Source: Candidatus Moraniibacteriota bacterium (GTDB taxonomy: Bacteria; Patescibacteriota; Minisyncoccia; Moranbacterales; GWC2-37-73). Taken from it: a DNA stretch of 64,000 bases. Below, in pieces: positions 7,085 through 62,073 of this stretch; the first letter of the stretch is position 1, and every line of letters begins with the position of its first letter. A model generated the notes under the pieces. The model searched no databases and was not told the origin of the DNA. It saw only the letters and a list, made by a program, of their open reading frames with translations. A program made the position numbers and the translations under genes. Where the stretch lies: positions 142,132 to 206,131 of the forward strand of contig DNVR01000019.1 in the NCBI GenBank assembly GCA_003507445.1, in the 5' to 3' direction.

Positions 7085-8521
7085 TTATTCTGCTCTACCT
7101 TCTAAGTTCCAAATATTGGCTTTAATAATCTTAACCTTCACAAATGTTCCGATTTGAATTTTTTTGTTAGAGACGATCTTTACATTTTTTTGCGTTCTGG
7201 TTTTCCCGAAACATATAAAACTCTTTCTTGACGCGTTGTCAGCAGCAGTTGATTTTACGCGTTCAATTAATACTTCAAAGGTTTTGCCGACATATTTTTT
7301 GTTATTTGCAAAGGCGGTTTTCTTGAGAATTTCATTGAGATAATTTTCTCGACGCGCCTTTTCTTTTTGAGAGACATTGTCTTTCATTTTCCATGCCACT
7401 GTTTCAGGTCGGGGAGAATATTGTCCAAAAAATACCATATCAAATTTCGATTTTTTCATTACCGCGGCCGACTCAAGAAATTGTTTTTTTGTTTCACCGG
7501 GAAAACCCACGATAATGTCGCTGGAAACACTAATCAACACCGATTTTCCACGGATTTTCACGAATGCTTTTCTTATTTTTTTGATTTGCTCTAAATAATG
7601 TTTTTGGGTATATTTTCGATTCATTCTTCGCAAAATTTCATCATCCCCGGCTTGCACTGGCAAATGAATCCATTCACAAACCTTTTTGCATCTTGCCACT
7701 GTTTCAATTAGTTCATCAGTCATATCCTTTGGATGCGAGGAAACAAAACTAATCCAGAATTTTCCCGGAATTGAATTTATTTTTTTTAACAATTTCGAAA
7801 AATTAATTTCTTTCTGAGTATTTTTTGTTGATAGTTGATAGTTGATAGTTGTGGGTGATTTATAGCTATTCACATTTTGTCCAAGTAGTGTGATGCTTTT
7901 GTATCCTTTTGCGACTAGGTCTTTAATCTCTTTGATTATTTCTTCGGCAGGACGAGAAACTTCGCGTCCTCGTGCATTTGGAACAACACAATAACTGCAG
8001 AAATTATTGCACCCAGTCATTATAGGGACATAAGCGGCATAATTGCTACTATATTTTGGATTAATAGAGAGATATGCGATGTTTTCTTTGTTGGTGATTT
8101 TATTTGGTGCCGCAATTTCCAATTTCCAATTTCCAATTTCCAAATAATTTTCAATGATCCAATTTTCAAATTCCCTAATATCTTTAACGGGGAAGAATAA
8201 ATCAACTTTTGATTTCATTCTTTTTTGAACATCGGCGCGGTTGGCGAGGCAACCAGTCATCACAATAACTTTTGACTTTGCATTTTCTTGTTTTGTTCCA
8301 TGCTCTATGTTCCATGTTTTATGCTTTTTGCGTAAGTTGTTAATCATACTGTACGCTCGATTTTCGGCAGTTTGTTTTATTCCACAAGTATTGAAAATTG
8401 TCAAATCAGCTTCTTTGATGTTATCAGTAACAGAAAAATTATGTTGCTCTAAAAAAGCAGCGATTCGCTCGCTGTCGCTAACATTCATCTGACAGCCAAA
8501 TGTTTTGATAAAATATTTCAT
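7085..8521 (-). CDS. miaB: tRNA-i6A37 methylthiotransferase (radical SAM, MiaB-like)
   Basis: MKYFIKTFGCQMNVSDSE MTTase N-terminus, CxxxCxxC radical-SAM region (GCNNFCSYC) and C-terminal TRAM domain. Adjacent to miaA. Carries several in-frame repeat inserts (EIGNWKLEI, TINYQLS, WNIEHGT). Confidence 0.85.
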   Translation of the reverse strand: MKYFIKTFGCQMNVSDSERIAAFLEQHNFSVTDNIKEADLTIFNTCGIKQTAENRAYSMINNLRKKHKTWNIEHGTKQENAKSKVIVMTGCLANRADVQKRMKSKVDLFFPVKDIREFENWIIENYLEIGNWKLEIAAPNKITNKENIAYLSINPKYSSNYAAYVPIMTGCNNFCSYCVVPNARGREVSRPAEEIIKEIKDLVAKGYKSITLLGQNVNSYKSPTTINYQLSTKNTQKEINFSKLLKKINSIPGKFWISFVSSHPKDMTDELIETVARCKKVCEWIHLPVQAGDDEILRRMNRKYTQKHYLEQIKKIRKAFVKIRGKSVLISVSSDIIVGFPGETKKQFLESAAVMKKSKFDMVFFGQYSPRPETVAWKMKDNVSQKEKARRENYLNEILKKTAFANNKKYVGKTFEVLIERVKSTAADNASRKSFICFGKTRTQKNVKIVSNKKIQIGTFVKVKIIKANIWNLEGRAE

Positions 8522-10675: not shown

Positions 10676-11126
10676 AAAAATAAAGTTAATGATTTATATA
10701 CTATTTTTAATTCCTAATTCCTAATTTCTAATATCTAATAAAATCTTAATTTCAAATGCCAAAATTTAGTCATTAAAAATTGGAAATTGTTTAGAAATTA
10801 GAAATTAGAAATTAGAAATTTTGATTCTAAATAAAAAAATACTCAAACAATACAGAAGAAACAATTAATGTTTCCGCATCGAGACTCTATCTGACGATAG
10901 GGTGGTTCCACTCGATTTCCCGTATTATTTGGGCACTTTGTGCGCTTATTCGCAAGCAGCTTAACCGGAAGCCTGTGCGCGGGTTGGTAAGCCGCAGCTC
11001 CATTTGATTGTATTTCAAGTATAGATAATTATTATAAAAAGTCAATATCTTTATTCTCCTGTTGCATTTTTTTGATAGTATGTTTGAATGATCGCAGTTG
11101 TTTAAAGTTATTTTGCAAGGGGCATT

Positions 11127-15796: not shown

Positions 15797-16334
15797 AAAT
15801 GAATTTGTGATTTAAAAACAGATCTAAATTTCTAATATCTAATTTCCAATATCTAATTAAATTCTAATTTCAAAGTTTTAAACATTAGACATTTGAAATT
15901 TATTGGGAATTAGAAATTAGGAATTAGAAATTAAAAAACCTCACTATAAATAGTGGGCTATAAAATACAGATATTAAAATGTTGAAATTTAATCTTGTTC
16001 ATATGTTTATGTTATCTTCATCTCCCAGGGACAAAGCCATTGGGTTTTGCAAGATATTTTAATAAATCTATGTTAGCATATTTTTTGAAAAAAGAAAACA
16101 TAGTAGTTTAGGACTTACGCTTTTTCTCAACAATTTCTTATTTGGCACGCTTTTGGATGAATACTCAATATCCAAAAGCTCAAAGAGTCGCTGTCGCCGA
16201 CTATTGTCCAAAAAAGAAATGTTTCGAAATGCGTAACTTTTGAAACAGTTCAAAACCTGAAAGTGGATAACTTTTCTTGTAAATATGGTATAATTTAACT
16301 ATTAAGATGGATATTTAAATAGTGGGGTTGTTTA

Positions 16335-18109: not shown

Positions 18110-18230
18110 AAGATTGCGTGTTATCATAATCTTGATATTTTATAATTATATTTTGTGAAGCAAAGGACAAGGAAAAGACTGAAATATGCAGGACTTTTGA
18201 CTTTTGACTTTTGACTTTTGACTTAAACTA

Positions 18231-19026: not shown

Positions 19027-19162
19027 TAAAATTTTTTAAATATCCAATTTCTAATTACCAATTTCTAATTAATTTCAAATTTCTCAATGTCTAAATTTTG
19101 ACATTAGGGTTTAAATTTTTTATTAGGAATTAGAAATTAGAAATTAGAAATTCTGAATTTCT

Positions 19163-19846
19163 ATGGTTGAATCTTTGGCTAAGAAAATTGGCATTAAATT
19201 TGATAATATTGAGTTGTTGCGTCAGGCAGTGACTCATCGCAGTTATTTGAATGAAAACAGGGATTATGCGCTTGACCACAATGAGCGTTTGGAATTTTTG
19301 GGTGATGCGGTTTTGGAACTTATTATTACTGAGCATTTGTACAATAATTATAAAAATCCAGAAGGGGAACTTACGAGTTGGCGCAGCGCGTTGGTAAATG
19401 GGGAAATGTTGGCAGTTGTTTCTCAAGAAATTGGTGTGGAAAAATATTTATTGATGAGTCGCGGAGAGGCAAAAGATAAGGGACGTGCTCGGCAATATTT
19501 GTTGGCCAATGCATTAGAGGCTATTATTGGCGCAGCATATCTTGATCAAGGTTATGATGTTACAAAAAAATTCGTGCTCAAAAATGTGGCCACAAAACTT
19601 AGTGAAATAATTGAGAAAAAACTATATCTTGATCCCAAGAGTTATTTTCAAGAGAAAGCACAGGAAAACAGTAAAGTAACACCATCATATCGGGTAATGA
19701 AAGAATGGGGACCTGATCATGATAAGCATTTTGTGGTGGGTGTGTATTTGGCAGATGAATTGGTTGCTGAAGGAGAAGGAAATTCAAAACAAGAAGCTCA
19801 GCGTGAAGCCGCCAGACTTGGGTTAGAAGCAAAAAGCTGGATCTAG
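19163..19846 (+). CDS. rnc: Ribonuclease III
   Basis: ERLEFLGDAVLELIITEHLY RNase III signature plus C-terminal dsRBD. Confidence 0.9.
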   Translation: MVESLAKKIGIKFDNIELLRQAVTHRSYLNENRDYALDHNERLEFLGDAVLELIITEHLYNNYKNPEGELTSWRSALVNGEMLAVVSQEIGVEKYLLMSRGEAKDKGRARQYLLANALEAIIGAAYLDQGYDVTKKFVLKNVATKLSEIIEKKLYLDPKSYFQEKAQENSKVTPSYRVMKEWGPDHDKHFVVGVYLADELVAEGEGNSKQEAQREAARLGLEAKSWI

Positions 19847-23068: not shown

Positions 23069-23121
23069 AATTATTAAGCAAAAGAAGTGCAAAATAGATA
23101 GTGCTTAATTTATGGTTTTAG

Positions 23122-23255
23122 GTCTCAATAGATTGGTGCATTTTTGTTTTGCCTGCTTCCTTTCTCGGCACGCTTCGCAATCGAAGAACTATGATTGCTC
23201 GCTAAGAGTTCGCTGTCGCTCTCTGTTGCCTCGAAAGAAAACAGGCAAAACAAAA
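23122..23255. repeat. Invertible-element copy A: IR ttttgttttgcctg / caggcaaaacaaaa flanking a ~86-bp core
   Basis: Core sequence is the reverse complement of the core at 53381-53466, while the flanks (including 20 bp left of the IR) are co-oriented. Confidence 0.7.
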
Positions 23256-23405
23256 AACAAACCTTCATTTTCAAAATCATAGTTTGATTATGAGTCACAA
23301 AAGGACGCTTAGAATAGAGCGTCTTTTTACTTGAAAAAAAACCTGAGACCTGTATAATTAGTTTGTAGTTAAGTAGGACTTAATTTAGGCTTAAAATAGA
23401 CAAAT

Positions 23406-25253: not shown

Positions 25254-25580
25254 ATGGAAAAATTTTATAATGCGATTGCGGAATTTCATAAGAAAAATGA
25301 AATGAAGGGCACGAATAATGAGGATATGCAATTTCGTTTAAATTTGATGACGGAGGAATTAGGAGAATTGGCGCAGGCTGTGACGAAAGGAAAATCTAAA
25401 GAGGAGTTTTTGGAAGAGAATGTGGATCTGGTTGTTCTTATTTTGGGTAATTTGATTAGTACTGGAATTACGGTCGAAGAATTTGAGCAGGCGTTTTGGA
25501 AAAAGCATACAAAAATAATGAGCAGGGAAAAAAGAAAATTGGAAAACGGAAATTTTAGAGTGTCAGATTTTAAGGAGTAA
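25254..25580 (+). CDS. MazG-like nucleotide pyrophosphohydrolase (all-alpha NTP-PPase)
   Basis: LMTEELGELAQAV...EELVDLVVLIL EExxE-like MazG motif pattern. Length 108 aa. Confidence 0.5.
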   Translation: MEKFYNAIAEFHKKNEMKGTNNEDMQFRLNLMTEELGELAQAVTKGKSKEEFLEENVDLVVLILGNLISTGITVEEFEQAFWKKHTKIMSREKRKLENGNFRVSDFKE

Positions 25581-25584
25581 AGTG

Positions 25585-25677
25585 TTTGTCATTCTGAACT
25601 TGTTTCATAATCTACTTTCTTTGTATCAGTGAACTTTGAGATAATCGAGATCTTGAAATAAATTCAGGATGACAAAG
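25585..25677. mobile_element. MITE-like element, TIR tttgtcattctgaa / ttcaggatgacaaa
   Basis: 14-bp terminal inverted repeats with one mismatch. Same termini family as 33207, 50108 and 55370. Confidence 0.55.
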
Positions 25678-26944: not shown

Positions 26945-28147
26945 ATGAAGATTGGAATTGATGCTTCCAGGGCTTTTATAAAAAACAGAACTGGTATTGA
27001 AGAATATTCATATCAAGTCATTGAAAACCTGCGTGATAAATTAAATAATCAGCAGGTTGTTTTATATGTTAAAAAAACTAACAACTTACAACTTACAACT
27101 TACGACGGAGTTGTTAAAATTAATGATTTGGAATTGCCAAAAAGTTGGCGAATAAAGGTCGTTAAATTTCCTAGATTTTGGACACAGCTGGGATTGTCTT
27201 GGGAAATGTTGCTGCGTCCCGTTGATGTCCTTTTTGTTCCTGCGCACACTGTGCCGATTATTCATCCTGAAAATACTGTGGTTGTGATTCACGGTTTGGA
27301 ATATGAATTTTGCCCAAAAGCATATTCTTCTTGGGAAAGAATGTATATGCGCGGAACAATTAAAAAATCTTGCGATTGGGCAAGCAGGATTATTTCTGTT
27401 TCTGAAAATACAAAGAAGGATTTGATGAATTTGTATAAAGTTGATGAGAAAAAAATATCTGTAATTTATGAAGGATATAGCCGCGAGGAGCGGAATTTCC
27501 AATTTCCAATTTCCAATTTCCAATCAAATCCAAATGATCAAATTTCAAAAATTAAAACATCAGAAATTCAATCGAAATTCGAAATTCGAAATTCGAAATT
27601 TCTTTTATTCATCGGTCGTATTGAGGAAAGAAAAAATATTTCCAACATTGTTAAGGCTTTTGAGCTTTTGAAAGAGAGATATAATATTCCGCACAAATTG
27701 GTACTAGCAGGAAAAGCAGGTTATGGCTACGATAATATTAAATTCGAAATTCGAAATTCGAAATTCGAAAATGATGTCGTGGAGCTGGGTTTTGTGAGTG
27801 AGGATGAAAAGTGGGAGCTTTTGAAAAAGGCGGATGTTTTTGTTTTCCCAACTCTGTATGAAGGATTTGGAATCCCAATTTTGGAAGCACAGAGTGTTGG
27901 TTGCTCCGTGGTGGCTTCAAATAATTCATCTATTCCCGAGGTAATCGGCGTAGAGACGCAAAATTTTGCGTCTCTACAGTTGGTTGACCCCCAAAATCCT
28001 CAAGACATCGCAGAAAGCATTTATAAGCTTATCTCGAACGAAAGCCTAAAAAATGCTATAATACAGAAAGGCTTGGAGAATGTGAAAAGGTTCAGTTGGG
28101 ACAAATGTGCACAGGAGATAGCTCAAATATTGTTAAAAAAGAATTAA
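26945..28147 (+). CDS. Glycosyltransferase family 4 (GT-B, RfaB-like)
   Basis: C-terminal GT1/GT4 motif (FVFPTLYEGFGIPILEAQSVGCSVVASN). Contains in-frame heptamer-repeat inserts (NFQFPISNFQ, FEIRNSKF x2). Confidence 0.75.
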   Translation: MKIGIDASRAFIKNRTGIEEYSYQVIENLRDKLNNQQVVLYVKKTNNLQLTTYDGVVKINDLELPKSWRIKVVKFPRFWTQLGLSWEMLLRPVDVLFVPAHTVPIIHPENTVVVIHGLEYEFCPKAYSSWERMYMRGTIKKSCDWASRIISVSENTKKDLMNLYKVDEKKISVIYEGYSREERNFQFPISNFQSNPNDQISKIKTSEIQSKFEIRNSKFLLFIGRIEERKNISNIVKAFELLKERYNIPHKLVLAGKAGYGYDNIKFEIRNSKFENDVVELGFVSEDEKWELLKKADVFVFPTLYEGFGIPILEAQSVGCSVVASNNSSIPEVIGVETQNFASLQLVDPQNPQDIAESIYKLISNESLKNAIIQKGLENVKRFSWDKCAQEIAQILLKKN

Positions 28148-33206: not shown

Positions 33207-33328
33207 TTGTCATTCCTGCGTAGGCAGGAATCTAGGATTATGAAATGTGTTTATTAAATTATATTTATCAATAATAGAAATATTGTGTACTAAATCCTGG
33301 ATTCCGGGTCAAGCCCGGAATGACAAAT
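33207..33328. mobile_element. MITE-like element with hairpin-containing TIRs (ttgtcattcc-TGCGTAGGCA-ggaatctagg ... cctggattcc-GGGTCAAGCC-cggaatgacaa)
   Basis: Terminal inverted repeats each contain an internal stem-loop. Same architecture as 55370-55488. Confidence 0.6.
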
Positions 33329-36906: not shown

Positions 36907-39222
36907 ATGGATTTTTTTAAATTTCCTAAAATTTTACGTGAAAAATCTGAACTAGACACGTCTGGTCAAAAGGCTTTTTTGAAATCCGCTGAACCAATGC
37001 GACCACTTTTTGTGAAAAATTTAGACGAAGCTATTGAAGATCAAATCACAGAAAAAGATGTGCCAGTAGATTTAAAAGCCGAAGCTTCTCTTTTGGGTGC
37101 AAAAGATCTTGGAGCTGCAGCTGCATCAGCAATGACCAAAAGACAGGAAAGGATTCGTAAAGATATGGTCGAAAAATATTTTGAAGAAATATTTCACACA
37201 CAAAAAAAAGAATTTCAAGATTTAAAAGATGAAGATAAAAAGGTTATAAATGATGAGAAATCGGATTTTTTGGAAGAAATTAAAAGTTCTTTTAATGCTG
37301 TTACTAATGAGGATGTTGAAAATGGGCTAAGGGATCGATTCTTAAATCAATTGCATGAAATGAAAATTTCAAAGGAGGCAAGGGATTATGTTAGAAAGGT
37401 GTGCGGTGGAATTGAGGTTGATGAGTTCTTGGGAAGAAAAGAGAATAAAGGCCTGGAGGAAATATTTAAAGAAGCTAAAGGTCTCATATTGAAAACAAAT
37501 GAAACAAAAAAGCAATTTCGTGCAAATAACCCAGGTATTAAGCTTGTGCGTGATTTTACTTTTGATTTAGTGGAAAAAATAGATTACTTTATACAGAAAA
37601 TAGATGAAGATATTGATTTTTTTACTGTCGAGGAGGAGGCTTTGTGTAAAAAAGTATTAGGAGCCTCCAAAGGAATCATTAAGGGTAATGGCAAGAAAAC
37701 ATCGATCGTAATGGACGGATTCACGTACAATGCAGATAGCGCCAATGTGGTAATAAATGAGGTAAAGCCAGCAGCAGTTGAAACTGACGCTGAAAAAGAA
37801 GAAAGAATGAAATTTTCCAGAGCTGGTGCTCAAATAACATTGCAACGAGTTGATAAGTGGGAGGATCTTGACGTTGTTGATCCTGCTGAAAAAGGTGAAC
37901 ATAAGGGCGATAAAAATTTTATAGAAAAAACCAAAAAACTTTGGAAAGAATTTGCGGTCCATGGACTTTATAAAGATGGTAAATTGCAGAAGTTTACTGA
38001 TTTAGATGGTAAAGGTTGCTTGGAATTGTTAAAGTTAGCCAAGATAAATATAAAAGATTTAAAATATATTGATCCTGGTACTTTTGAAGAAGGAAGAATT
38101 AATTTAGATACTGGCGGAAAAGATGGTGTGGTGGCTGAGGATTTTGATAAAGAGAATAAAAAAACAGCTTTTATTGATCATCATGGTGAAGAATCATTGG
38201 CTGATTCTTCTGCAACCGCTAAAACGTATCGAATGTTGGTTGACTTGGGGTTATTAGAAAAGAATCCAAAGCTGGATGAAATGGTAAAATTTGTAAATCA
38301 AGTAGATAATGCACAGTATCCTAAGATAGAAACATATTTTGAAAATTCTCATAAGACAATTATTGGCTTGCAAAATTATATTCATGGATCAAAGTTGGTA
38401 AATTTTTTCATGAAAGATAATAATCCTGACCCAACCAGAGAATTGTCTGAAGGTGAATTAAAGAAATATGGCTTTATATATCCTGGTGTTGGTGATAAAA
38501 AGGGAACTATTGTAAACAGGAGTGAAAATCAGAGAAATGTTAAAGAAAAATCAAAAGAAAGTCTTGAAAGAATGGAAAAAGAAGGATTTATAATTACTTC
38601 TGATCGTTATGGAAAAATTGCAGTAAGTATTGAAAATGGAATTGAAAAGAAAAATATCCCAGGTGATATCTTGGCTGTTAAGGCGTTTGGTTGTGACTCT
38701 CTTGTTATTTGGAACCCAAGAGAAAATAAATTTAAAATTTCTACCAATAACGAAATAACCGAAGAATATTCTCAAGGTGTTAAAGTGCGTGGCATAATGT
38801 GGGTAAAAAATAATAGCGATAGTTCAGAACTAACTGTTACGCTTGGGGAGATTTTGAATAAAATGACAGATGGAAAATTGGTGGCTGAAGGAAAATTGAA
38901 AGAATATTTGGAGCAAGAAGTGGCTTTGCCAGTCTCAAATGCGGATGCATTATCAGTTGAAGCGCCAAAAGAAAAAACTCCAGAAGATTTGTTCAAAGAT
39001 CTGATTGTGGAACTCTCTGTTTTTAATGTAGAAAGATATCAATTGTTGTATAATGAAATGATGGATGTGGCTGGGAAAAAGGGAGTAGTTGGAGATGAAA
39101 AAAAGAAGCTAGTTTTGAGTGTGTTGCCCAATGTTGTTGAACGTGATATTGCAAGGCACACAAAAAAAAGAGGCGAGGAGTTAGAAAAGATTTCTGAGTA
39201 TATTTTGAGTCAAATAAAATAA
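36907..39222 (+). CDS. Hypothetical large protein with embedded DHH-phosphoesterase-like motifs
   Basis: FTDLDGKGCLELL (motif I DxDGxxS/C), INLDTGG (motif II) and AFIDHHGEE (motif III DHH) at canonical spacing. Rest unassigned. Confidence 0.5.
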   Translation: MDFFKFPKILREKSELDTSGQKAFLKSAEPMRPLFVKNLDEAIEDQITEKDVPVDLKAEASLLGAKDLGAAAASAMTKRQERIRKDMVEKYFEEIFHTQKKEFQDLKDEDKKVINDEKSDFLEEIKSSFNAVTNEDVENGLRDRFLNQLHEMKISKEARDYVRKVCGGIEVDEFLGRKENKGLEEIFKEAKGLILKTNETKKQFRANNPGIKLVRDFTFDLVEKIDYFIQKIDEDIDFFTVEEEALCKKVLGASKGIIKGNGKKTSIVMDGFTYNADSANVVINEVKPAAVETDAEKEERMKFSRAGAQITLQRVDKWEDLDVVDPAEKGEHKGDKNFIEKTKKLWKEFAVHGLYKDGKLQKFTDLDGKGCLELLKLAKINIKDLKYIDPGTFEEGRINLDTGGKDGVVAEDFDKENKKTAFIDHHGEESLADSSATAKTYRMLVDLGLLEKNPKLDEMVKFVNQVDNAQYPKIETYFENSHKTIIGLQNYIHGSKLVNFFMKDNNPDPTRELSEGELKKYGFIYPGVGDKKGTIVNRSENQRNVKEKSKESLERMEKEGFIITSDRYGKIAVSIENGIEKKNIPGDILAVKAFGCDSLVIWNPRENKFKISTNNEITEEYSQGVKVRGIMWVKNNSDSSELTVTLGEILNKMTDGKLVAEGKLKEYLEQEVALPVSNADALSVEAPKEKTPEDLFKDLIVELSVFNVERYQLLYNEMMDVAGKKGVVGDEKKKLVLSVLPNVVERDIARHTKKRGEELEKISEYILSQIK

Positions 39223-39236
39223 AGTTACAAAACAAA

Positions 39237-41429
39237 ATGGCAGCAGGAACATTGGACGCAACTATATTTAATGATTTGCTTAACAAGCACACAGCACAAA
39301 TAAGTGCTGAGGTTGAAGTTGAAAAAGAAGACAAGAGAATTGCTAAATGGACACAGGAACACAAGGATAAATTGGCAATTGAAACTGAAGTGCTTGGCGA
39401 GCAGCGTGAAAAAGAGAATGAGATGTTCGAAACTGCTGCCAAGAGTCCTAAAAAAGGAATTGAAAAAAAAGATTCTGTTTTTGAGGGTGAGAGAAATTTC
39501 AAAAAATCCACAGATATGGCTGAAGCTGTTGATCCTCAAGAAAAAGCTCTCAGGGAAGCAAGAAAAATTTATGTCGAAACTGAATTCAAAGAACGAAATG
39601 CTCTTAGGGAAGTTAGGGGTTATTTTAGTCGGGCGCTTGGAAAGGAGGATAAGACAGAAACACCAAATATCGCTGCAGCTCGTATGGCTTATGAAAAATT
39701 ACGTAAAGAAAAGATGAATGGCGAGATTGCCAAACTCGAAAGTGGTACGCTCAAAGGAGATGCTTTGAATACTGAGATCAAGAAATTACTCACTTATTAT
39801 AATACTGGAGCTGCACTGGAATTATATAATGATAGAATTGCAGTAAAAACTGCGCAAAAAAAAGAAACCGAGGGAAAAACAAAGCTTAAAAATACTTGGG
39901 ACAAGGTAACGTTAAAGATGGATCAGGTTGCGGAATTTTATAATAAAAAAGTTCATTGGTCTATAAAAATTGGACTTGCTGCAACCTCTTGGTATCTTGG
40001 TGCTGGTGCATTTAAATCTGGAAAAAACATTTGGGGTGCTTTTATGATGGCAACAGCGGGAGGTGCGGCGTTGGATGGTGCGGCACAATTTACTGATAGT
40101 ATTCTTGATGGTAGGGCGGACAAAAAAAATCTTAAAGAAATTTCCAAAGAAGGTGGCGAGGTTGATTTTGAAAAATTGAGAGGAATCTTGAATCAAAAAA
40201 ATGAAGATATTAATAGAAAAGTTAATAAACATGTGATGCGGGCATATTTTAATAAGACGGTTGCAGTTTGTTTGGCAACAGTAATTGGAGTGCAGGCAGT
40301 TGAGGGCATGGCGCATGCTTTTGAAAAAATGACTGCAGCACCTCCCGTGGTTAGCACCGCTCCATCTGTAGATAATTGGCCAACTCCTCCAAGCACTGGT
40401 ATTCCTGTGGATTTAAAACCAGAATCACCTGAATATATAAAATGGGTGGCTGAACATGGTGGGAAGCCTCCAGTTTCAGCTCAAGATGCTGCTGCGCAAG
40501 CAAAAAAAGCTGCTGAAACTGTTGTTGGTGCTTCAAATAAAGCGGTTGAATCCTTAACAATAGAAAAAGGTTCAAGTATTGAAAAAACATTGATCGATCA
40601 TCTCAAGACTCATGGAATAAAAAATCCAGGAGCTGCAGCACATCGCATGTGGCTTGATTATATGCATGACAATAAAGCTGAGATAATTAAAAAAGTTGGA
40701 GACAATGAATATCACAAGATGCTAAAAGATGGAATGGTTAATGTTAAACCTGGAACGCATATTTTTATAAATGAAAATAATCCGTTGGAGATGAAATTGA
40801 GTAATATTGACGGGAAAATCTCACACCTGAATGGGCATCATTCTGTTGGCAGTGGCGGCGTTGAAAATGGGCAAGGTGTGGGCGCTAGTATTAAACCAAC
40901 TGATATTCCAAAGCCGTCAGCAGCTGCGGTGGTAGGAAATGCTGATGTCTTAGGGTACACTGGGGAAACTCAGCAAAATATTTCAACAGCAAAAGAAATG
41001 TTTAAAAGCGCTAATGCTGAATATATTCAAGCAGCCAATGATGCAACAGATCATCCCGCTGGAGGAGGTGGACCATCGGCATCTCAATATGAAGATATGG
41101 GTCGCGCTGATGAGGCGCGCAAATCGGCAGCTTTGACAGTTGAAAATTTAGCCAATGCAAAAGAGAATTGCTTTAAGGATATAAAAGCAGCGACGAATGG
41201 TATATATAAAGCTACTGGATACAAGTGGGATGATATTAAAAACTTGGATTATAGTTCTGCTTATGCTGATGATAAATTGCGTCCAATTATGAAAGAAATG
41301 GCAAAAGAATATAAAAAAGAATTTGGCAATACTAATAATTTTCCTAATAGTAATACCACTTTTGGGAAATGGCTTTACCGTGTAAAAGAGGTTACTATAA
41401 AAAAACGTTTAGGTATAAATATTGAATAA
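39237..41429 (+). CDS. Hypothetical large protein with central hydrophobic segments
   Basis: 730 aa. Charged N-terminal third, 2-3 predicted TM/hydrophobic helices (IGLAATSWYLGAGAF, GAFMMATAGGAALDGAA, VAVCLATVIGVQAV), Gly/Ala-rich C-terminal region. Confidence 0.45.
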   Translation: MAAGTLDATIFNDLLNKHTAQISAEVEVEKEDKRIAKWTQEHKDKLAIETEVLGEQREKENEMFETAAKSPKKGIEKKDSVFEGERNFKKSTDMAEAVDPQEKALREARKIYVETEFKERNALREVRGYFSRALGKEDKTETPNIAAARMAYEKLRKEKMNGEIAKLESGTLKGDALNTEIKKLLTYYNTGAALELYNDRIAVKTAQKKETEGKTKLKNTWDKVTLKMDQVAEFYNKKVHWSIKIGLAATSWYLGAGAFKSGKNIWGAFMMATAGGAALDGAAQFTDSILDGRADKKNLKEISKEGGEVDFEKLRGILNQKNEDINRKVNKHVMRAYFNKTVAVCLATVIGVQAVEGMAHAFEKMTAAPPVVSTAPSVDNWPTPPSTGIPVDLKPESPEYIKWVAEHGGKPPVSAQDAAAQAKKAAETVVGASNKAVESLTIEKGSSIEKTLIDHLKTHGIKNPGAAAHRMWLDYMHDNKAEIIKKVGDNEYHKMLKDGMVNVKPGTHIFINENNPLEMKLSNIDGKISHLNGHHSVGSGGVENGQGVGASIKPTDIPKPSAAAVVGNADVLGYTGETQQNISTAKEMFKSANAEYIQAANDATDHPAGGGGPSASQYEDMGRADEARKSAALTVENLANAKENCFKDIKAATNGIYKATGYKWDDIKNLDYSSAYADDKLRPIMKEMAKEYKKEFGNTNNFPNSNTTFGKWLYRVKEVTIKKRLGINIE

Positions 41430-41452
41430 AAATTAAACTAAATTAAAATTTT

Positions 41453-41767
41453 ATGGAAGAACATAATACTGCGCAAGCAGAAGCGCTGAGTCAATTGATT
41501 AAAGATTTGGGAATCGACACGCTTTCTCAAGACAAACAAAATGAACTCATCATTAAGATGACGGAAGTTTTGCTGAAGAGAATTTTTCTTGAGACAATGG
41601 ATAAGCTTGGAGAAGAGGGTCGCGAGGAATATGAAAAAATGTCCCAAGGCGAAGTCTCTCCATCGCAAGTAGAAGAATTTTTCAAAGAAAGAATTAATGA
41701 TTATGACGAAATGGTGCAGGGGATTATTGAGGAATTTAGGGGAGAGATGATGCAGGCAAACAAATAA
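41453..41767 (+). CDS. Hypothetical small acidic protein
   Basis: 104 aa, helical and acidic; tightly linked to upstream gene. Confidence 0.4.
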   Translation: MEEHNTAQAEALSQLIKDLGIDTLSQDKQNELIIKMTEVLLKRIFLETMDKLGEEGREEYEKMSQGEVSPSQVEEFFKERINDYDEMVQGIIEEFRGEMMQANK

Positions 41768-41866
41768 ACATGTAACATACAACATGTAACATGTAACAAA
41801 AAAATGCGTTGGTATCCTAGGTTGGATGTTATATGCTATATGTTATATGCTATATGGTGAGAATTT

Positions 41867-42304
41867 ATGAAAAGTAACTTAGAGCCGATTGAGGAAAGTG
41901 ATTTGGACTTGGAGGGTAAAATTAAAAATGGAAGTGTGGATTTTTCTCGTGAGGATGCCGTGCCTGTTTCTGCTATTGAACGTGAAGCGATAAAAGAAGT
42001 TAGTGCAGCTGAAAAGGATGCTGCTTATGGCAAAATTCTTTCCAAAGTTCAAACAGTGCAATCTGATGATGAATTGGATCAAACAGTCATTGCGTCTGAT
42101 GCGAAGACTGGTTACGAAAAAATGGATGCTGAGTCGCAGGTTCAGCACTTGGTTGATATTGCAGGGCAAAAAGGTGTTGTGCATGCTGTGAAAGTGGCTC
42201 AACATATGCAAGACAATTATATTCTCGACACTTTTCACGACCGTATGCTCGGCGAAGAACTGCACAATGCATTGGTGGAGAAGGGAATGATAAAGGAAAT
42301 CTAG
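41867..42304 (+). CDS. Hypothetical acidic protein
   Basis: 145-aa ORF, no domain recognised. Confidence 0.4.
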   Translation: MKSNLEPIEESDLDLEGKIKNGSVDFSREDAVPVSAIEREAIKEVSAAEKDAAYGKILSKVQTVQSDDELDQTVIASDAKTGYEKMDAESQVQHLVDIAGQKGVVHAVKVAQHMQDNYILDTFHDRMLGEELHNALVEKGMIKEI

Positions 42305-42475
42305 GATTTCAAGGTCTAAATACTAAAGACTAAAGACTAAATCAAGATTAAATTTAAAAAAGTTTAAAGTATTGCGTTTGTTTATATTTTAAACTTTAGA
42401 TTTGATTTAGTAATTAGACTTCAGACTTTAGAATTAAAAAATATAAACAAAAAATACAAATAAAAAATATTTTTC

Positions 42476-44962
42476 ATGAATACTCTCGACCTCAACACCA
42501 TCCTCATCCCTTTGCTTTGGGTTTTTGCCACACTGACTCTTTTTAGTGGTGCTTTTTTGGTTGTGCGAAGTTTTTTGAATTATCGTGCTCAAATCAATCG
42601 TTCGATGAATATGGACTTGGAAGTTGTGCGAGTGACAAAAATTTTCAAGGAAAAAGGCGAGCGAAGTGAAAATGGCGAAGCTTGGAAAGAAGAAATTGGT
42701 GCGATGGAACAATTGCTCACGACACTTTCTAATATTAAAGAAAAAAAATCACTCTGGGCTCATTTTTTGTATAGCGAGCCATATATGGCACTTGAAATTG
42801 CCAATCCTTGTGGAAATGAGGAAATTTCTTTTTATTTGGCAGTGCCAAAGAAATTTCGTGACAGCATTGAGAAGCAAGTTCATTCATATTTCCCACATGC
42901 TTCTATTGAAAAAATTCCAGATTATACGATTTTTTCACCAGGGAGTTTTACTGCTGCTGCAACACTTGGACTTAAACGTTCATATGCTTTGCCAGTTCTT
43001 ACATATGAAAATATTGATGTTGACCCGCTCAATGAAATTTCAAATGCGCTTAGTAAGCTGCAAACAGAAGGGGAAGGTGCGGCGATTCAGATTGTTTTGC
43101 GTCCTGCGGGAAAAAATTGGCGAAAATTGGGAAGAGGAATTGCACACAAGATGCAACAAGGAAAACAACTTAAGGATGCACATTCAAATTCGATCGCAAT
43201 GGAACTTGGAAAAGGTATGGTGCAAGTGATTCAAAATAAGCCAAAGGAAGAAATTCTGCACAAGGATTCAGTGCAGCTTACTCCGGAAGAACAGGAACTT
43301 GTAAAAAAAATTGAAGCAAAATCTGGCAAGGCTGGATTCAAAGCTAACATTCGTTTGCTTGCATCTGCAATGACTCAACAGAAGGCGGATGAAATTTTGG
43401 CGCATATGGAAAATGCTTTTGCGCAATTTGAAAATCACGACGTCAACCATTTTGTGGTGCAAAAAAGAATTAAATCCAAGAAAATATCTTTTGATTATAT
43501 CTTCAGAAATTTTGATGAAGATCATTCTATCATTTTGTCTACTGAGGAAATTGCCAGTATTTTTCATTTTCCAATTTCTACCACTGAAACACCAAAAATT
43601 AAATGGTTGAAAGCTGGAGCTGCACCACCACCACTTAATATTCCAAAAGAAGGATTGGTTCTTGGATATAATGATTATCGTGGAGTAAAAACCGACATCA
43701 GACTTAGTGATGGAGACAGACGAAGGCATTTGTATACTATCGGTCAAACTGGTGTTGGTAAGTCAAATTTCTTGCAGGAAATGGCCAAACAAGATGCGCG
43801 TGACGGCAAAGGATTTTGCTTTATTGATCCACACGGAGATGCGATTGAAGATATTTTAACTGCCATTCCGAAGGAACGCGCGGAAGATGTGATTGTGTTT
43901 GATCCATCTGATATGGAAAGACCCTTTGGACTTAATATGCTGGAATATGACCCGAGTCATCCCGAGCAAAAAACTTTTGTGATTAATGAAATGATTGGTA
44001 TTTTTGATCAGTTGTATGATTTGAAAGCTACAGGTGGTCCGATGTTTGAACAATATGTGCGAAATGCGATGCTCCTTATTATGGAAGATCCTGAATCAGG
44101 CTCAACGCTGATGGAAATTTCCAAAGTTTTGGCTGATGAAGATTTCCGCAAAATGAAATTGTCCAAGTGTAATAATCCCGTAGTTTCAGATTTTTGGATC
44201 AAGGAAGCTGAGAAAGCTGGTGGGGAAGCAGCACTTGCTAATATGGTTCCGTATATCACTTCCAAGCTTACCACCTTTGTTTCTAATGATATGATGCGTC
44301 CAATCATCGCACAGCAAAAAAGTACAATCAATTTTCGTGAAGTGATGGATTCTGGCAAAATTTTGTTGGTAAAACTTTCCAAAGGAAAGATTGGAGAAAT
44401 CAATGCACATCTTTTGGGAATGGTTATTGTGGGAAAAATTTTAATGAACGCGCTGGCGCGCGGTGATATGCCTGAAGATCAGCGTCGCGATTTTTATCTT
44501 TATTTGGATGAATTTCAAAATGTCACAACTGAATCGATTTCTCAAATTCTTTCTGAAGCGCGAAAATATCGTTTGTGTTTGATTATTGCACATCAATTTA
44601 TTGGGCAACTTAAAGAAGAAATTTCCAAGGCAGTTTTTGGTAACGTTGGTTCGATGGTGGCTCTGCGAGTTGGACCAGAAGATGCAGAGTTTTTGGAAAA
44701 ACAATTCGAACCGATTTTTACTGCCAATGATTTGGTTAATGTGGATAATTATAGTGGCTTTACGCGAATGCTTGTTAATGGGGAACTTTCCAAGCCATTT
44801 AATATTAAATTTTATCCACCAACCAGGGGCAATCAAGAAGCTGCCAATTATCTCAAAGAGCTGTCACGCCTCAAATATGGACGCGACGCTGCTATTGTGA
44901 ACCGTGAAATTATGCAACGCGCCCAATTTGCACGTAGCGCAATGAAAGAGTCAGCTTTCTAA
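42476..44962 (+). CDS. Membrane-anchored TrwB/TraD/VirD4-like (type IV coupling protein family) P-loop ATPase
   Basis: N-terminal TM (LIPLLWVFATLTLFSGAFLVV). Walker A YTIGQTGVGKSNF followed by FIDPHGD (compare TrwB VIVDPNGD). Distant Walker B LYLDEFQNV. Confidence 0.65.
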   Translation: MNTLDLNTILIPLLWVFATLTLFSGAFLVVRSFLNYRAQINRSMNMDLEVVRVTKIFKEKGERSENGEAWKEEIGAMEQLLTTLSNIKEKKSLWAHFLYSEPYMALEIANPCGNEEISFYLAVPKKFRDSIEKQVHSYFPHASIEKIPDYTIFSPGSFTAAATLGLKRSYALPVLTYENIDVDPLNEISNALSKLQTEGEGAAIQIVLRPAGKNWRKLGRGIAHKMQQGKQLKDAHSNSIAMELGKGMVQVIQNKPKEEILHKDSVQLTPEEQELVKKIEAKSGKAGFKANIRLLASAMTQQKADEILAHMENAFAQFENHDVNHFVVQKRIKSKKISFDYIFRNFDEDHSIILSTEEIASIFHFPISTTETPKIKWLKAGAAPPPLNIPKEGLVLGYNDYRGVKTDIRLSDGDRRRHLYTIGQTGVGKSNFLQEMAKQDARDGKGFCFIDPHGDAIEDILTAIPKERAEDVIVFDPSDMERPFGLNMLEYDPSHPEQKTFVINEMIGIFDQLYDLKATGGPMFEQYVRNAMLLIMEDPESGSTLMEISKVLADEDFRKMKLSKCNNPVVSDFWIKEAEKAGGEAALANMVPYITSKLTTFVSNDMMRPIIAQQKSTINFREVMDSGKILLVKLSKGKIGEINAHLLGMVIVGKILMNALARGDMPEDQRRDFYLYLDEFQNVTTESISQILSEARKYRLCLIIAHQFIGQLKEEISKAVFGNVGSMVALRVGPEDAEFLEKQFEPIFTANDLVNVDNYSGFTRMLVNGELSKPFNIKFYPPTRGNQEAANYLKELSRLKYGRDAAIVNREIMQRAQFARSAMKESAF

Positions 44963-45014
44963 AAGGTTTTAGGTGTTAGGTACTAGGTTCTAGGTTTTAG
45001 AAAAATTCATACAG

Positions 45015-45044
45015 CAAAAAACGGCTATCGTTAGCCGTTTTTTG
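45015..45044 (+). terminator. Rho-independent terminator aaaaaacggctatcgttagccgtttttt
   Basis: Stem cggcta/tagccg with A/T flanks after the ATPase gene. Confidence 0.6.
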
Positions 45045-45053
45045 TGTTGTTAT

Positions 45054-45125
45054 TGACTTTTTATCAATTTGGGTGTATAATATAAAGATAGTGTCCACAC
45101 GTTTTAAAAACGTGTGGATTTTTTA
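45054..45125 (+). promoter_or_regulatory. Consensus-like promoter TTGACT-N16-TATAAT immediately followed by hairpin+T-run (tccacacgtttt-aaaaa-cgtgtgga-tttttt)
   Basis: Seen directly. Would give a transcript of about 40 nt; alternatively an antisense/attenuated unit facing the 3' end of the 874-aa gene. Confidence 0.4.
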
Positions 45126-50101: not shown

Positions 50102-50107
50102 TAATTA

Positions 50108-50165
50108 TTTGTCATCCTGAACTTGTTTCAGGATCTAGATTCCGGATCAAGTCCGGAATGACACA
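50108..50165. mobile_element. MITE-like element (compact copy): tttgtcatcctgaa...ggatcaagtcc ggaatgaca
   Basis: Shares the left terminus with 25585 and the hairpin/right terminus with 33207/55370 elements. Confidence 0.5.
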
Positions 50166-51865: not shown

Positions 51866-53320
51866 ATGGACTATTCTCTTTATTTAATGCCGATGTTTTC
51901 TTCTTTGCTGATTTCAGTATCGCTGCTTATTTTATTGATTTCATTTGGCCAAAAATATTCAAATGATGATGGTAGGACTTCCAATAGACATATTCATAAA
52001 AAAGGAATTTTGCGTTTTGGTGGGATAGCTTTAATTTTATCCTTTTTGTTTGCAATCTTGTTGGACAAAAATCTTGTCATAGGCGCGCCCTTGCTTGGCG
52101 TGCTTTTTGGTTCTTTGCTAATTTTGGTTTTGGGTGTTATTGATGATTTCAAGCAAATAGTATGGAAAAAACAACTTTTCTTTCAATTTTTGATTGTGAT
52201 TTTTGTGTATATTATGGGTGTGCATCTCGAATATGTGACAAATCCTTTTGGTGGAGTGCTGATGCTTGATGCTGATTGGGGATACGTATTTGGTTTTTTG
52301 ATTTCCACTGTATGGATTATCTTTCTTATGAATGCAATGAATTGGATTGATGGCATTGATGGTGTGGTTGGGGGTGTTGGACTCATTGGAATAATAGCGA
52401 TTTTCTTTTTAAGTTTACGGCCGGAAGTTAATCAGCCTCCTATCGGAATTATTGCGGCTGCTTTTGCAGGCAGTCTTGTTGCATTTTTGTTTTTTAATTT
52501 TTATCCCGCAAAAATTTTAGCCGGGAGTAGCGGCTCGATGTTTATAGGTTTTATTTTGGCGGTTCTGGCGATTTTCGCTGGAGCAAAAATCGCAACCACC
52601 TTGCTTGTGCTGGCCGTGCCCATTATCGATGCGCTCTGGGTTATTGGTGAGCGCTTCAAAGCAGGAGTTTCAATTTTTTCGGGAGATAGAAGACATCTGC
52701 ATTTTAGGCTGCTGGAGCTTGGTTGGTCGCAAAGAAGCATTTGTCTTTTTTATTACACAATAACGGCGTTAGTTGCATTTATAGCACTTAACACGCAAGC
52801 TTTGGAAAAAATGATTGCACTTTTTCTCGTCACGATCGTTGTGCTTGTGTTTTTCGTGATTATTCGCAGAAAAATGGAAATTAAAAAAATAGTGTTATTG
52901 ATTTCGGCGCTTGTTATTTTTGTGTTTGCGATTGGTTATGTGTCAAAAAGGGTATATTCTTTTGCTGGCAATCGAATTGTTGCTGCTAATATTAAAAATA
53001 ATATTTTTTATGCCGAAGTTGTTTCCAGTAGTCAGAAAATGCAAAAAGGACTGGGCGGTAGAGTTGGTATTTGCGAGAATTGTGGTATGCTCTTTGAATT
53101 TCAAAAATCTTCGCAACATGCATTTTGGATGAAAGATATGAAATTTCCTTTGGATATCTTGTGGATTTTGAAAAATGAAATTGTTTATATTGAAAAAAAC
53201 ATCAAACCAGATTTGGTTGGCATTCTTATGCCAAATAGCGATGCAGATAAGGTTTTGGAGCTTAACGCCGGCACGGTGGACGGTCTTGGCATTGAGATTG
53301 GGGACACGGTTACCTTTTAG
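51866..53320 (+). CDS. WecA/MraY-family polyprenyl-phosphate N-acetylhexosamine-1-P transferase fused to C-terminal DUF192-like domain
   Basis: RFGGIALILSF...LVLGVIDDFKQI is the GT4 MraY/WecA signature with Asp-Asp motif; about 10 TM. C-terminal FPLDILWILKNEIVYIEKN...NAGTVDGLGIEIGDTV resembles DUF192. Confidence 0.6.
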   Translation: MDYSLYLMPMFSSLLISVSLLILLISFGQKYSNDDGRTSNRHIHKKGILRFGGIALILSFLFAILLDKNLVIGAPLLGVLFGSLLILVLGVIDDFKQIVWKKQLFFQFLIVIFVYIMGVHLEYVTNPFGGVLMLDADWGYVFGFLISTVWIIFLMNAMNWIDGIDGVVGGVGLIGIIAIFFLSLRPEVNQPPIGIIAAAFAGSLVAFLFFNFYPAKILAGSSGSMFIGFILAVLAIFAGAKIATTLLVLAVPIIDALWVIGERFKAGVSIFSGDRRHLHFRLLELGWSQRSICLFYYTITALVAFIALNTQALEKMIALFLVTIVVLVFFVIIRRKMEIKKIVLLISALVIFVFAIGYVSKRVYSFAGNRIVAANIKNNIFYAEVVSSSQKMQKGLGGRVGICENCGMLFEFQKSSQHAFWMKDMKFPLDILWILKNEIVYIEKNIKPDLVGILMPNSDADKVLELNAGTVDGLGIEIGDTVTF

Positions 53321-53346
53321 CTGCTAAACACAATTTATGCTTCTAA

Positions 53347-53480
53347 GTCTCAATAGATTGGTGCATTTTTGTTTTGCCTGTTTTCTTTTGAGGCAACAGA
53401 GAGCGACAGCGAACTCTTAGCGAGCAATCATAGTTCTTCGATTGCGAAGCGTGCCGAGAAGGGAAGCAGGCAAAACAAAA
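53347..53480. repeat. Invertible-element copy B (same flanks as 23122-23255, core inverted)
   Basis: Identical 33-bp left flank+IR and 14-bp right IR. Core equals the reverse complement of copy A core with 2 mismatches. Confidence 0.7.
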
Positions 53481-53546
53481 GCTCCTTTTTTTGAGCTATA
53501 ACTTTAGTGTGGTTTTTTTTGGGAAAACAAGAAAAATAGGCAACAT

Positions 53547-53572
53547 AAAACCCCGCTTTTGCGGGGTTTTAT
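53547..53572. terminator. Bidirectional terminator aaaaccccgcttttgcggggtttt
   Basis: Perfect stem ccccgc/gcgggg with A/T runs, between convergent genes. Confidence 0.6.
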
Positions 53573-53637
53573 GTTTTTAACTTCTTTTCCGGAAAAGAAC
53601 AGTTTTGTGAAACAAATATTTTCTTAAATTTTTTCAC

Positions 53638-55094: not shown

Positions 55095-55265
55095 ATGGCA
55101 GTTAAAAAAGCAAAAAAGAAAGTTGCAAAAAAAGTAGTTAAAAAAGTTGCAAAGAAAGCTGTAAAAAAAGCAGTTAAAACTGTAAAAAAAGCAGTTAAAA
55201 AAGCAGCTCCAAAAAAAGCTGTAAAGAAAGTTGCAAAAAGAAAAGTAGCAAAGAAACGAAAATAG
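55095..55265 (+). CDS. Lysine/alanine-rich histone-like small basic protein (Hc1/H1-like KKAVKK repeats), 56 aa
   Basis: Strong SD aaaggaggtg 7 nt upstream of ATG; terminator downstream. Not in ORF track (<60 aa). The antisense ORF 55073..55303 is an artefact. Confidence 0.6.
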   Translation: MAVKKAKKKVAKKVVKKVAKKAVKKAVKTVKKAVKKAAPKKAVKKVAKRKVAKKRK

Positions 55266-55369: not shown

Positions 55370-55488
55370 TTGTCATTCCGGACTTGATCCGGAATTCAGG
55401 ATTAGCACGTTAAACTTTAAATAATATTTTTCTCAATTTTAAATCCGTAGTTCAAATCCTGGATTCCCGCCTACGCGGGAATGATAAT
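55370..55488. mobile_element. MITE-like element (ttgtcattcc-GGACTTGATCC-ggaattcagg ... cctggattcc-CGCCTACGCG-ggaatgataa)
   Basis: Same architecture as 33207-33328; internal hairpin stems differ by compensatory changes. Confidence 0.6.
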
Positions 55489-59175: not shown

Positions 59176-59307
59176 TATTTCATAATTACTAATTACCAAT
59201 TACTAATTTCTAACAAAAACAAAAATAAAAAATGTCTAATTGTTTGAAATTTGACATTGAAAATTTTATTAGATATTAGAAATTAGATATTAGAAATTTT
59301 TAAACCT

Positions 59308-61970: not shown

Positions 61971-62073
61971 CAGGTTTGAATAAATTAATTATCATATAAC
62001 ATAAAACATATAGCATATAACATGGGATGCAGGGTTGCTCCATGATCAATGCTCCATGTTCCATGAAAATATT

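Follow-up and report, generated by a model that had tools for sequence, protein, structure and literature searches.

MITEs are recognized by their small size, non-coding sequence, TIRs, target duplications, dispersed copies, and empty sites, and their termini are usually better conserved than their centre. The target duplicated by the Correia elements (CREE) is TA. REPINs depend on RAYT and have conserved stems and variable loops. Invertons usually have a dedicated recombinase nearby, carry a promoter or a coding part in the inverted segment, adjoin a regulated gene, and are present in both orientations in a population. The terminal hairpins of parvoviruses and poxviruses exist in flip and flop forms, which arise in every replication round and are equimolar.

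The CREE of Neisseria, the described system closest to the loci reported here, are MITEs that carry inverted repeats and a directional, conserved core, duplicate their target, and form hairpins sensitive to RNase III (PMC2649163). Inversion of CREE has been reported (Elbeyioglu et al. 2017, as cited in a passage of PMC10969869). Small hairpin-loop inversions of chloroplasts, in which the loop flips between short inverted repeats without a dedicated recombinase, are described in a passage of PMC12371153 (citing Kelchner & Wendel 1996), which gives their typical size as 4–50 bp.

In this study, we analysed a 64-kb stretch of DNA (the window), in which a short segment is found at two loci in opposite orientations. 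The original prediction regarded this segment as a phase-variable inverton of the fim/hin type. Our analysis led us to conclude that the two copies belong to a new MITE-like family of Moranbacteria from groundwater. Both loci are probably nested palindromes of this family, whose core flipped occasionally, without any program, between the inner repeats and then became fixed at the locus. In the following, the two loci in the window are called copy A (winA) and copy B (winB), and L-numbers denote loci in other assemblies or genomes.

The arrangement of the two copies is as predicted. Direct reading confirmed two loci in which a core is inverted between identical inverted repeats, and a base-by-base comparison showed that the 86-nt core of copy B is the reverse complement of that of copy A with two mismatches (Table 1). 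A repeat search of the window detected an inverted repeat of 115 nt with 98% identity (23142–23256 and 53366–53480) and a direct repeat with 88% identity (23107–23170 and 53332–53395). When the two cores were read in the same direction, 48 of the 86 positions differed, and therefore the core is not self-complementary, in agreement with the prediction. The left sequence common to both copies reaches approximately 49 nt, and the 19-mer GTCTCAATAGATTGGTGCA occurs exactly twice in the 64-kb window, compared to an expectation of 0.03. The GC content of the core was predicted to be about 50% against a background of about 33%; the former agrees with the measured value (48.8%), whereas the window itself has 36.7%. 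Domain matches agree with the proposed gene context: MurD and EPSP_synthase (MurA) genes border copy A, and the neighbours of copy B are a Glycos_transf_4 + DUF192 gene (the WecA-like gene), a convergent ORF of 198–202 aa, and a bidirectional terminator.

The repeated unit is larger than the proposed length of about 134 bp. Alignment of 18 copies on the core revealed an element of 186–200 nt (about 190–200 nt for the real unit in the window) with the order outer TIR, arm, inner repeat and stem, core, mirror stem and repeat, second arm, and outer TIR. The consensus of the outer TIR is GGGTCAYACGCAAYWYATGGTT on the left and AACCATRWRTTGCGYRTGAYCC on the right, and GGTCACACGCAA... and ...TTGCGTGTGATC are present at both ends in nine copies. 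The inner inverted repeat is perfect over 14–15 nt and runs on into an imperfect stem of about 30 bp, which encloses the asymmetric core of about 50% GC. The element has no Pfam or Rfam content and is thus regarded as non-coding. Two ORFs, 23112–23282 (+) and 23125–23298 (−), cross copy A, and the possibility of a small protein was rejected because the frame of the core differs between subfamilies. The positions of the features are summarized in Table 1.

Table 1. Features of the two element copies, their surroundings, and the family 2 copy in the window
Feature	Position	Strand	Remarks
Putative left target-site duplication of copy A (CAAAATAG)	23090..23097	.	Tentative; 5/8 identical to CAAAAGGA
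Copy A of the MITE-like element, ~200 nt (Y arm, core A, X arm)	23098..23297	+	Missing from the murD–murA spacer of the closest relatives
Copy A outer TIR left, degenerate (ATAGTGCTTAATTTATGGTT)	23098..23117	+	Aligns with GGGTCATACTCAATTTATGGTT / GTGCGTAATTTATGGTT of other copies
Copy A arm Y, the "left flank" of the original prediction (GTCTCAATAGATTGGTGCA at 23122–23140)	23118..23141	+	Within the element at the unrelated loci L036, L076, L078, L079, and L014
Copy A inner inverted repeat left (TTTTGTTTTGCCTG)	23142..23155	+	Direct reading
Copy A core, 86 nt, "A" orientation	23156..23241	+	Central ~56–64 nt near-invariant in 18/18 copies
Copy A inner inverted repeat right (CAGGCAAAACAAAA)	23242..23255	+	Direct reading
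Copy A arm X (AACAAACCTTCATTTTCAAA)	23256..23275	+	Homologous to the right arms of L036, L078, and subfamily 1
Copy A outer TIR right (ATCATAGTTTGATTATGAGTCA)	23276..23297	+	Aligns with AACCATAAATTGAGTATGACC of other copies
Putative right target-site duplication of copy A (CAAAAGGA)	23298..23305	.	Tentative
Terminator-like hairpin and T run, downstream of copy A	23302..23329	+	Conserved in element-free relatives
murA promoter-like site, outside the element	23331–23358		Conserved in element-free relatives
Copy B of the element, ~187 nt (Y arm, core B, X' arm)	53326..53512	+	Missing in L095/L096
Copy B outer TIR left (AAACACAATTTATGCTTC)	53326..53343	+	Alignment of copies
Copy B arm Y	53344..53366	+	Comparison with copy A
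Copy B inner inverted repeat left (TTTTGTTTTGCCTG)	53367..53380	+	Direct reading
Copy B core, 86 nt, reverse complement of core A with 2 mismatches	53381..53466	-	Base comparison
Copy B inner inverted repeat right (CAGGCAAAACAAAA)	53467..53480	+	Direct reading
Copy B arm X' (GCTCCTTTTTTT), diverged from arm X	53481..53492	+	Closest to the X arm of L081
Copy B outer TIR right (GAGCTATAACTTTAGTGTGG)	53493..53512	+	Reverse complement CCACACTAAAGTTATAGCTC matches the TIR consensus GGTCACACGCAATACATGGTTC
Bidirectional intrinsic terminator of the convergent genes; copy B lies upstream	53542..53575	.	Sequence
Family 2 copy, related and shorter (GGCACGCTT, hairpin, AAGAGTCGCTGTCGC)	16107..16244	+	Covariance-model match and sequence

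Homologous copies were found in related genomes, for which a search with the same inverted repeats had been proposed. One genome per species was scanned for the inner repeats with the spacing found in the window (IR-gap-IR), and of the 62 loci obtained, only two contain the same core: L014 in Moranbacteria GW2011_GWE2_36_40 and L036 in Parcubacteria GW2011_GWC1_36_108. The remaining matches arose by chance inside genes or belong to an unrelated repeat of Lachnospiraceae, whose 115-nt matches carry GTTTTGCCTG coincidentally. L014 and L036 are not orthologues of locus A, since they are non-syntenic with the window, and the "outer flank" that they share with it is arm X of the element. A metagenome scan with an exact core 22-mer added 19 loci. 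After same-locus duplicates are considered (L036 = L075 and L082; L014 = L073 and L086; L081 = L083), the two scans together provided 18 distinct copies with outer TIRs and arms in Moranbacteria and Parcubacteria genomes and metagenomes. At L084, the module has no recognisable outer TIRs. The copies are divided into subfamily 1 (nine loci), whose inner repeat is GCTTTGCCTG and whose arms are short on the left and long on the right, and subfamily 2, the window type, with the arms Y and X. The genes beside the copies are unrelated housekeeping genes: murD/murA, glmM-type mutase, scpA, fmt, rhodanese, methyltransferase, and ABC transporter genes. BLAST searches of plasmids and phages found no copy of the element, and the 55 matches of a relaxed core pattern in viral contigs all arose by chance in phage DNA of high GC content. 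A covariance model built on the module found no further copies of this family (family 1) and picked up a second, shorter one (family 2), in the window, at L036 (6575–6705), at L070 (7035–7165), and as a variant at L072. The element family occurs, with a low number of copies, in Candidatus Moranbacteria and related Patescibacteria.

By its MurD homologues, the window belongs to Candidatus Moranbacteria. Comparison of filled and empty sites provided insight into the origin of both copies. At locus A, the closest two relatives (MurD 96 and 95% identical) have a murD–murA spacer of 138 nt, compared to 337 nt in the window, without the element; they retain the terminator hairpin and also the murA promoter that lie to the right of copy A. 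The empty site in L090 has one CAAAAAGA, and the window has CAAAATAG and CAAAAGGA on either side of copy A. More distant relatives have a CAP-domain gene at locus A and also lack the element. At locus B of a relative with 92% identity (L095/L096), the stop codon is followed by about 22 nt and then by the same terminator, with no element between them. The element was therefore inserted recently at both window loci, between a stop codon and a terminator.

The ends of the copies bear traces of target duplication. The 8-mers flanking nine copies, namely those with both outer repeats located (eight of subfamily 1 and L081, the window copies not being among them), agreed at 6.2 of 8 positions on average; permuted pairs agreed at 4.45 ± 0.35, and none of 2000 permutations reached 6.2. 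In L070 (ATAATTTG) and L077 (AGAAAAAG), the flanking 8-mers are identical at all eight positions. The small size, non-coding sequence, TIRs, duplications of about 8 bp, dispersed copies, and empty sites led us to regard the element as MITE-like. The TIRs are degenerate in copy A and recognisable though degenerate in copy B, and the putative target duplications of both window copies are degenerate, that of copy B being indistinct. Neither in the window nor in the fetched loci did we find an autonomous parent IS or a transposase bearing these TIRs. The lack of a parent in these sequences and the degenerate ends of the window copies (agreement of 5/8 at copy A) count against a MITE-like origin.

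The orientation of the core was compared with that of the arms in all 18 copies. When the copies are oriented by the core, arm Y lies on the left in copy A, L036, L076, L078, and L079, and its reverse complement lies on the right in copy B and L014. In L081, which has no arm Y, the long and the short arm have changed sides in comparison with the measured copies of subfamily 1 (8/9). Consequently, the core is inverted relative to the asymmetric arms at three of the 18 loci (copy B, L014, and L081), and the arm Y sequences of copies A and B are identical at 19 of 19 positions. At the level of sequence, this comparison shows that the opposite core orientations correspond to inversion of the segment between the inner repeats, which took place in two or three lineages of the family at least. 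The inversion put forward in the original prediction thus holds in that the core is truly inverted relative to asymmetric neighbouring sequence, and more than once in the family. What is not supported is the notion of a fim/hin-type switch at fixed chromosomal flanks, as the "flank" is an arm of the mobile element and not host DNA.

Judged by the module, each flipped copy is closest to unflipped ones, indicating that flips recur; the distribution would need at least two independent flips, or recombination. The asymmetric mismatches of the stem move together with the core, and hence the switch point lies inside the perfect repeat of 14–15 nt. All flips are confined to the subfamily with uninterrupted inner repeats. 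None of the nine copies of subfamily 1, which often carry a mismatch in the middle of the inner repeat, is flipped. We worked through crossover between copies on paper as the source of the flip and rejected it: the products would be Y...Y or X...X chimeras or the unchanged state, and never Y–core B–X. Inversion within one element is therefore the simplest route.

The orientation could alternatively have been set at mobilisation, either because the IR-core-IR module is a guest in a palindromic carrier or because a hairpin or single-strand intermediate gives "flip" and "flop" forms. Such an origin would account for the fact that the window copies are recent and differ in their outer parts, with a near-identical Y arm, repeat, and core, and it would suit an element that is a long hairpin; the module of L084, without recognisable outer TIRs, also resembles a guest. 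Nevertheless, no carrier-only copy (TIR or arms without the core) was found in 252 kb of Patescibacteria DNA, and family 2 holds a homologous core inside its own stem, so that the core is ancestral to the superfamily and not a guest. Nested insertion of the module into a carrier palindrome was rejected on these two grounds. If the orientation were randomised, the single state of all nine subfamily 1 copies would be unexpected (two-sided binomial p of about 0.004 by our own arithmetic). We thus regard an orientation set at mobilisation as clearly unlikely, and inversion within an inserted element as the probable event.

In order to evaluate the proposed switch, the orientation at each locus was compared among independent assemblies. 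Locus A was in the "A" state in three of three (L088, L089, and L001; NCBI MAG, JGI 3300001242, and Logan SRR6487546) and locus B in the "B" state in four of four (L002, L004, L005, and L006), as read from consensus assemblies, which are blind to a minority of flipped molecules. The orientations at L014, L036, and L081 were each constant over two or three assemblies, and the diverged orthologous pair L036/L076, whose proteins are 93–99% identical, shares one core state. The Logan contigs break at the element (L001 and L003); this was considered as a sign of heterogeneity and is explained by the two-copy repeat.

The components expected of a switch were also searched for. The original prediction had suggested testing the core for promoter activity; a sequence scan found no sigma-70-like site in it on either strand, and the sole candidate in the vicinity is that of murA, which lies beyond the element. 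Of the 49 ORFs called in the window, 40 were scanned, and none of these matched a recombinase or transposase family of Pfam; several ORFs outside that scan have precomputed housekeeping matches, such as MurD, MurA, MreB, and RmuC. No recombinase or transposase was matched in ten neighbouring ORFs scanned at L084, L085, L014, L036, and L070. Copy B is flanked by convergent genes and precedes the terminator that they share, and hence there is nothing there to switch; copy A is followed by a terminator hairpin. A switch of the fim/hin type is unlikely. The original prediction had itself named a single fixed orientation per locus, also across strains, and the absence of a recombinase as outcomes that speak against an active switch, and these are the outcomes obtained, as far as the assemblies and the 64 kb, part of a contig of 296 kb, reach.

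Spelled out, the idea of the original prediction is that the core is turned frequently between the 14-nt repeats by a serine or tyrosine recombinase whose gene lies elsewhere in the genome, resulting in phase variation of a promoter, a terminator, or an RNA strand. The perfect inverted repeats enclosing an asymmetric, unusually conserved, and GC-richer core speak for such an enzyme, both orientations are present in one genome and in different lineages, and every flip occurred in the subfamily with intact repeats. Against this stand the constant orientation at each locus over all independent assemblies and samples, the agreement of the diverged orthologues L036 and L076, the lack of promoter-like hexamers in the core, and the lack of a recombinase in the scanned ORFs of the window and beside the other copies scanned. 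The positions of copy B amid convergent genes and of copy A before a terminator, with murA retaining its own promoter, point in the same direction. Moreover, the insertion is recent and close relatives lack it, so that the element is not a conserved regulatory locus. Frequent, programmed inversion is very unlikely in our estimation.

The conservation of the core suggests a role beyond that of a MITE centre. Within subfamily 1, the outer repeats share a pairwise identity of 87%, the arms 94–95%, the inner stem 96–97%, and the core 98%, an increase that is inflated in part by the selection of metagenome copies with an exact core 22-mer. A core more conserved than the TIRs is unusual for a plain MITE; it hints at a function of the core and counts against a plain MITE-like reading, as does the fully compensated hairpin of family 2, which suggests selection on the core. 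The termini of family 2 are related (GGACTTACGCAAT...), and its homologous core consists of GGCACGCTT, a hairpin, and then AAGAGTCGCTGTCGC, with AGAGTCGCTGTCGC also kept. Common to both families is the order GGCACGCTT, a variable but always paired hairpin, AGAGTYCGCTGTCGC, and GCC. All six pairs of the central hairpin differ between the families and still pair (TTGGAT/ATCCAA vs GCAATC/GATTGC), and within family 1, covariation was seen at the stem pairs 7/110 and 24/93. From this compensation, the covarying stem pairs, and the core conservation, we conclude that selection probably acts on the structure of the core, either as DNA or as RNA. The RNA of the element folds with −44 to −65 kcal/mol and z-scores of −2.8 to −6.4. 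A wobble bias (30 C-A vs 14 G-T mismatches) was considered as a sign of the RNA strand and discarded, because it is dominated by one inherited mismatch.

These results raise the question of whether purifying selection maintains the core as a functional structured RNA or as a DNA module that binds protein, such as a 3'UTR processing or stability element or a site for a transposase or host factor, with the mobile element as its vehicle and the orientation setting the expressed strand. The greater identity of the core than of the TIRs, the retention of its motifs in family 2 with six compensated pairs, and the covarying stem pairs would be explained in this way. Both differences between the window cores preserve G-U pairing on one strand, and both window copies lie in 3'UTRs ahead of terminators. 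On the other hand, searches of Rfam 15 with both families, at gathering and permissive thresholds, gave only sub-threshold microRNA-precursor and leader matches typical of long hairpins. Relative to host transcription, the strand of the core varies among copies (A in copy A, L014, L036, L074, and L080; B in copy B, L070, and L072), the conservation figure is inflated by the 22-mer selection, and covariation in palindromic DNA cannot tell RNA hairpins from DNA hairpins. A functional core carried by the mobile element as its vehicle is therefore rather unlikely as the overall explanation. Even less credible than programmed inversion in general is a portable inverton, in which the conserved core of about 60 nt would be a new Patescibacteria module (a structured RNA or a recombination or transposition site) flipped deliberately by an unlinked recombinase to choose the strand of the 3'UTR. 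If it were true, the strand expressed in the 3'UTR of a host gene would be chosen by a flip, and the inverton itself would be mobile.

The reading that we prefer, a MITE-like element with an occasional, unprogrammed flip, may proceed as follows. The element would be transposed in trans by a transposase of the DDE type, as suggested by the TIRs and the target duplications of about 8 bp. After insertion, it would sit in a 3'UTR and be co-transcribed as a long hairpin, which, by analogy with Correia and ERIC elements, may be a substrate of RNase III; an RNase III is encoded in the window at 19163–19846. Rarely, intramolecular recombination or replication template switching across the inner-repeat hairpin would flip the core, and the flipped state would then be inherited and fixed at the locus. 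By analogy with the proposal for the chloroplast inversions and with the reported inversion of Correia elements, we infer that the flip may take place by recombination or template switching between the perfect inner repeats.

The mobile elements of the Candidate Phyla Radiation are barely described, and our literature search for MITEs in this group found no description. The present family provides a concrete case with filled and empty sites, which makes it usable as a marker of recent genome change in streamlined bacteria with very small genomes. It also gives a caution for inverton searches by sequence alone, in which a "fixed flank" may be a mobile palindrome travelling with the core. The conservation of the core over the termini, together with the hairpin compensated between the families, is the one feature that could repay experiments.

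Comparison with known systems places the family among small mobile palindromes. Like the invertons of E. coli (fimS), Salmonella (hin), and Bacteroides, it has a segment between short inverted repeats (perfect over 14–15 nt) in both orientations; unlike them, it showed no recombinase in the window ORFs scanned, no promoter in the core, and no coexisting orientations in the consensus assemblies. The small inversions of chloroplasts share the recurrent flip and a state that is fixed in a lineage and homoplasious between lineages, and differ in that the segment here is 86 bp long and lies inside a bacterial mobile element. In the flip and flop forms of parvoviruses and poxviruses, the asymmetric centre of a palindrome likewise exists in two reverse-complementary forms, whereas here each locus has one stable state, and all nine copies of subfamily 1 have a single one. 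ERIC/IRU, RPE, RUP, and REPIN elements are also small, non-coding, hairpin-forming, and intergenic, often in co-transcribed UTRs; they have no sequence relation to the present family, in which the centre is the most conserved part. The family is nearest in behaviour to the Correia elements. It differs from CREE in sequence, TIRs, core, and phylum, lacks the 26-bp Correia repeat termini, and is thus an analogue and not a member. The duplication is about 8 bp and not TA, no promoter-like sites were found in the element, and the copy number is much lower. A second, inner pair of repeats bounds the flip here, so that the arms stay and only the core turns. What CREE/NEMIS and the present family have in common is the form of a non-coding MITE of about 100–200 bp with TIRs, a conserved directional core, target duplication, presence or absence between strains, and hairpin transcripts, which are predicted for the present family.

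A second family of palindromic elements, about 135 nt long and shorter than the element described here, was found by the covariance model in the window and at three loci fetched from other genomes or metagenomes (table below). Its termini are related to those of the longer element (GGACTTACGCAAT...), and the cores of the two families are homologous. The central hairpin stem of the second family is entirely unlike that of the longer element in sequence, yet it is fully compensated.

In two further fetched loci, L084 (8492-8607) and L085 (9777-9892), the longer element lies immediately 3' of a recG - glmM-type mutase gene pair. The proteins of the two genomes are only 36-70% identical, yet the element adjoins the same gene pair in both; the L084 copy has no recognisable outer repeats. 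Either the insertion is old and its core has been conserved to a remarkable degree, or the element has inserted at this site more than once.

The one-genome-per-species scan for inner repeats at element spacing also returned a 115-nt repeat family from Lachnospiraceae of the human and mouse gut, with motifs of the GTTTTGCCTG / GTTTCCGTG type. This family was rejected as a chance match to the pattern, bearing no relation to the element.

Coordinates of the additional repeats
Feature	Locus	Coordinates
Second palindromic family	window	16107-16244
Second palindromic family	L036	6575-6705
Second palindromic family	L070	7035-7165
Second palindromic family	L072	7645-7760
7-nt arrays (examples)	window	8113-8143, 10791-10820, 18192-18224, 19122-19152
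7-nt arrays (examples)	window	27494-27524, 27572-27600, 27740-27770
7-nt arrays (examples)	window	55819-55849, 56055-56087, 56225-56257, 59268-59298, 61993-62023
Hairpin repeats	window	33293-33326, 55370-55403, 55455-55487, 55971-56003
Hairpin repeats, additional	window	25580-25676, 50103-50142
115-nt Lachnospiraceae repeat	L008, L010, L012, L015-L020, L023 and about 20 more loci	

The window carries other repeats as well. Tandem arrays with a 7-nt unit occur at more than 25 sites, and nearly all are about 31 nt long (about 4.4 copies), a uniform length despite differing units (AATTTCC, TTAGAAA, GACTTTT, TCGAAAT, AACTGAC, ATGCTAT, and others). They are frequently paired, directly or inverted, at a spacing of 140-240 nt. 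Three of them (27494-27770) lie in frame in a GT4 glycosyltransferase ORF (26945-28147), where they translate as NFQFPISNFQ (once) and SKFEIRNSKF (twice), located both within and between Pfam domains; the array at 8113-8143 is contained in a MiaB-like ORF (7085-8521). A further intergenic family consists of hairpin repeats of the types TTGTCATTCCGG...CCGGAATGACAA and TTTGTCATCCTGAA...TTCAGGATGACAAA. A small ORF region (55098-55252) contains a Lys/Ala-rich coding repeat, (AAAAAAGCTGTA)n, with periods of 12 and 36 nt.

Among the protein-coding genes, 42476-44962 encodes a VirD4/TraG-like coupling protein, and the very large ORFs around it (36907-39222, 39237-41429, and 45123-47747) gave no Pfam match; the region 36907-47747 possibly serves secretion or DNA transfer. 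The gene at 51866-53320 encodes a 484-aa WecA-like Glycos_transf_4 protein with DUF192 fused at its C-terminus, a fusion present in only a minority of its homologues, most of which are about 345 aa long and lack DUF192.
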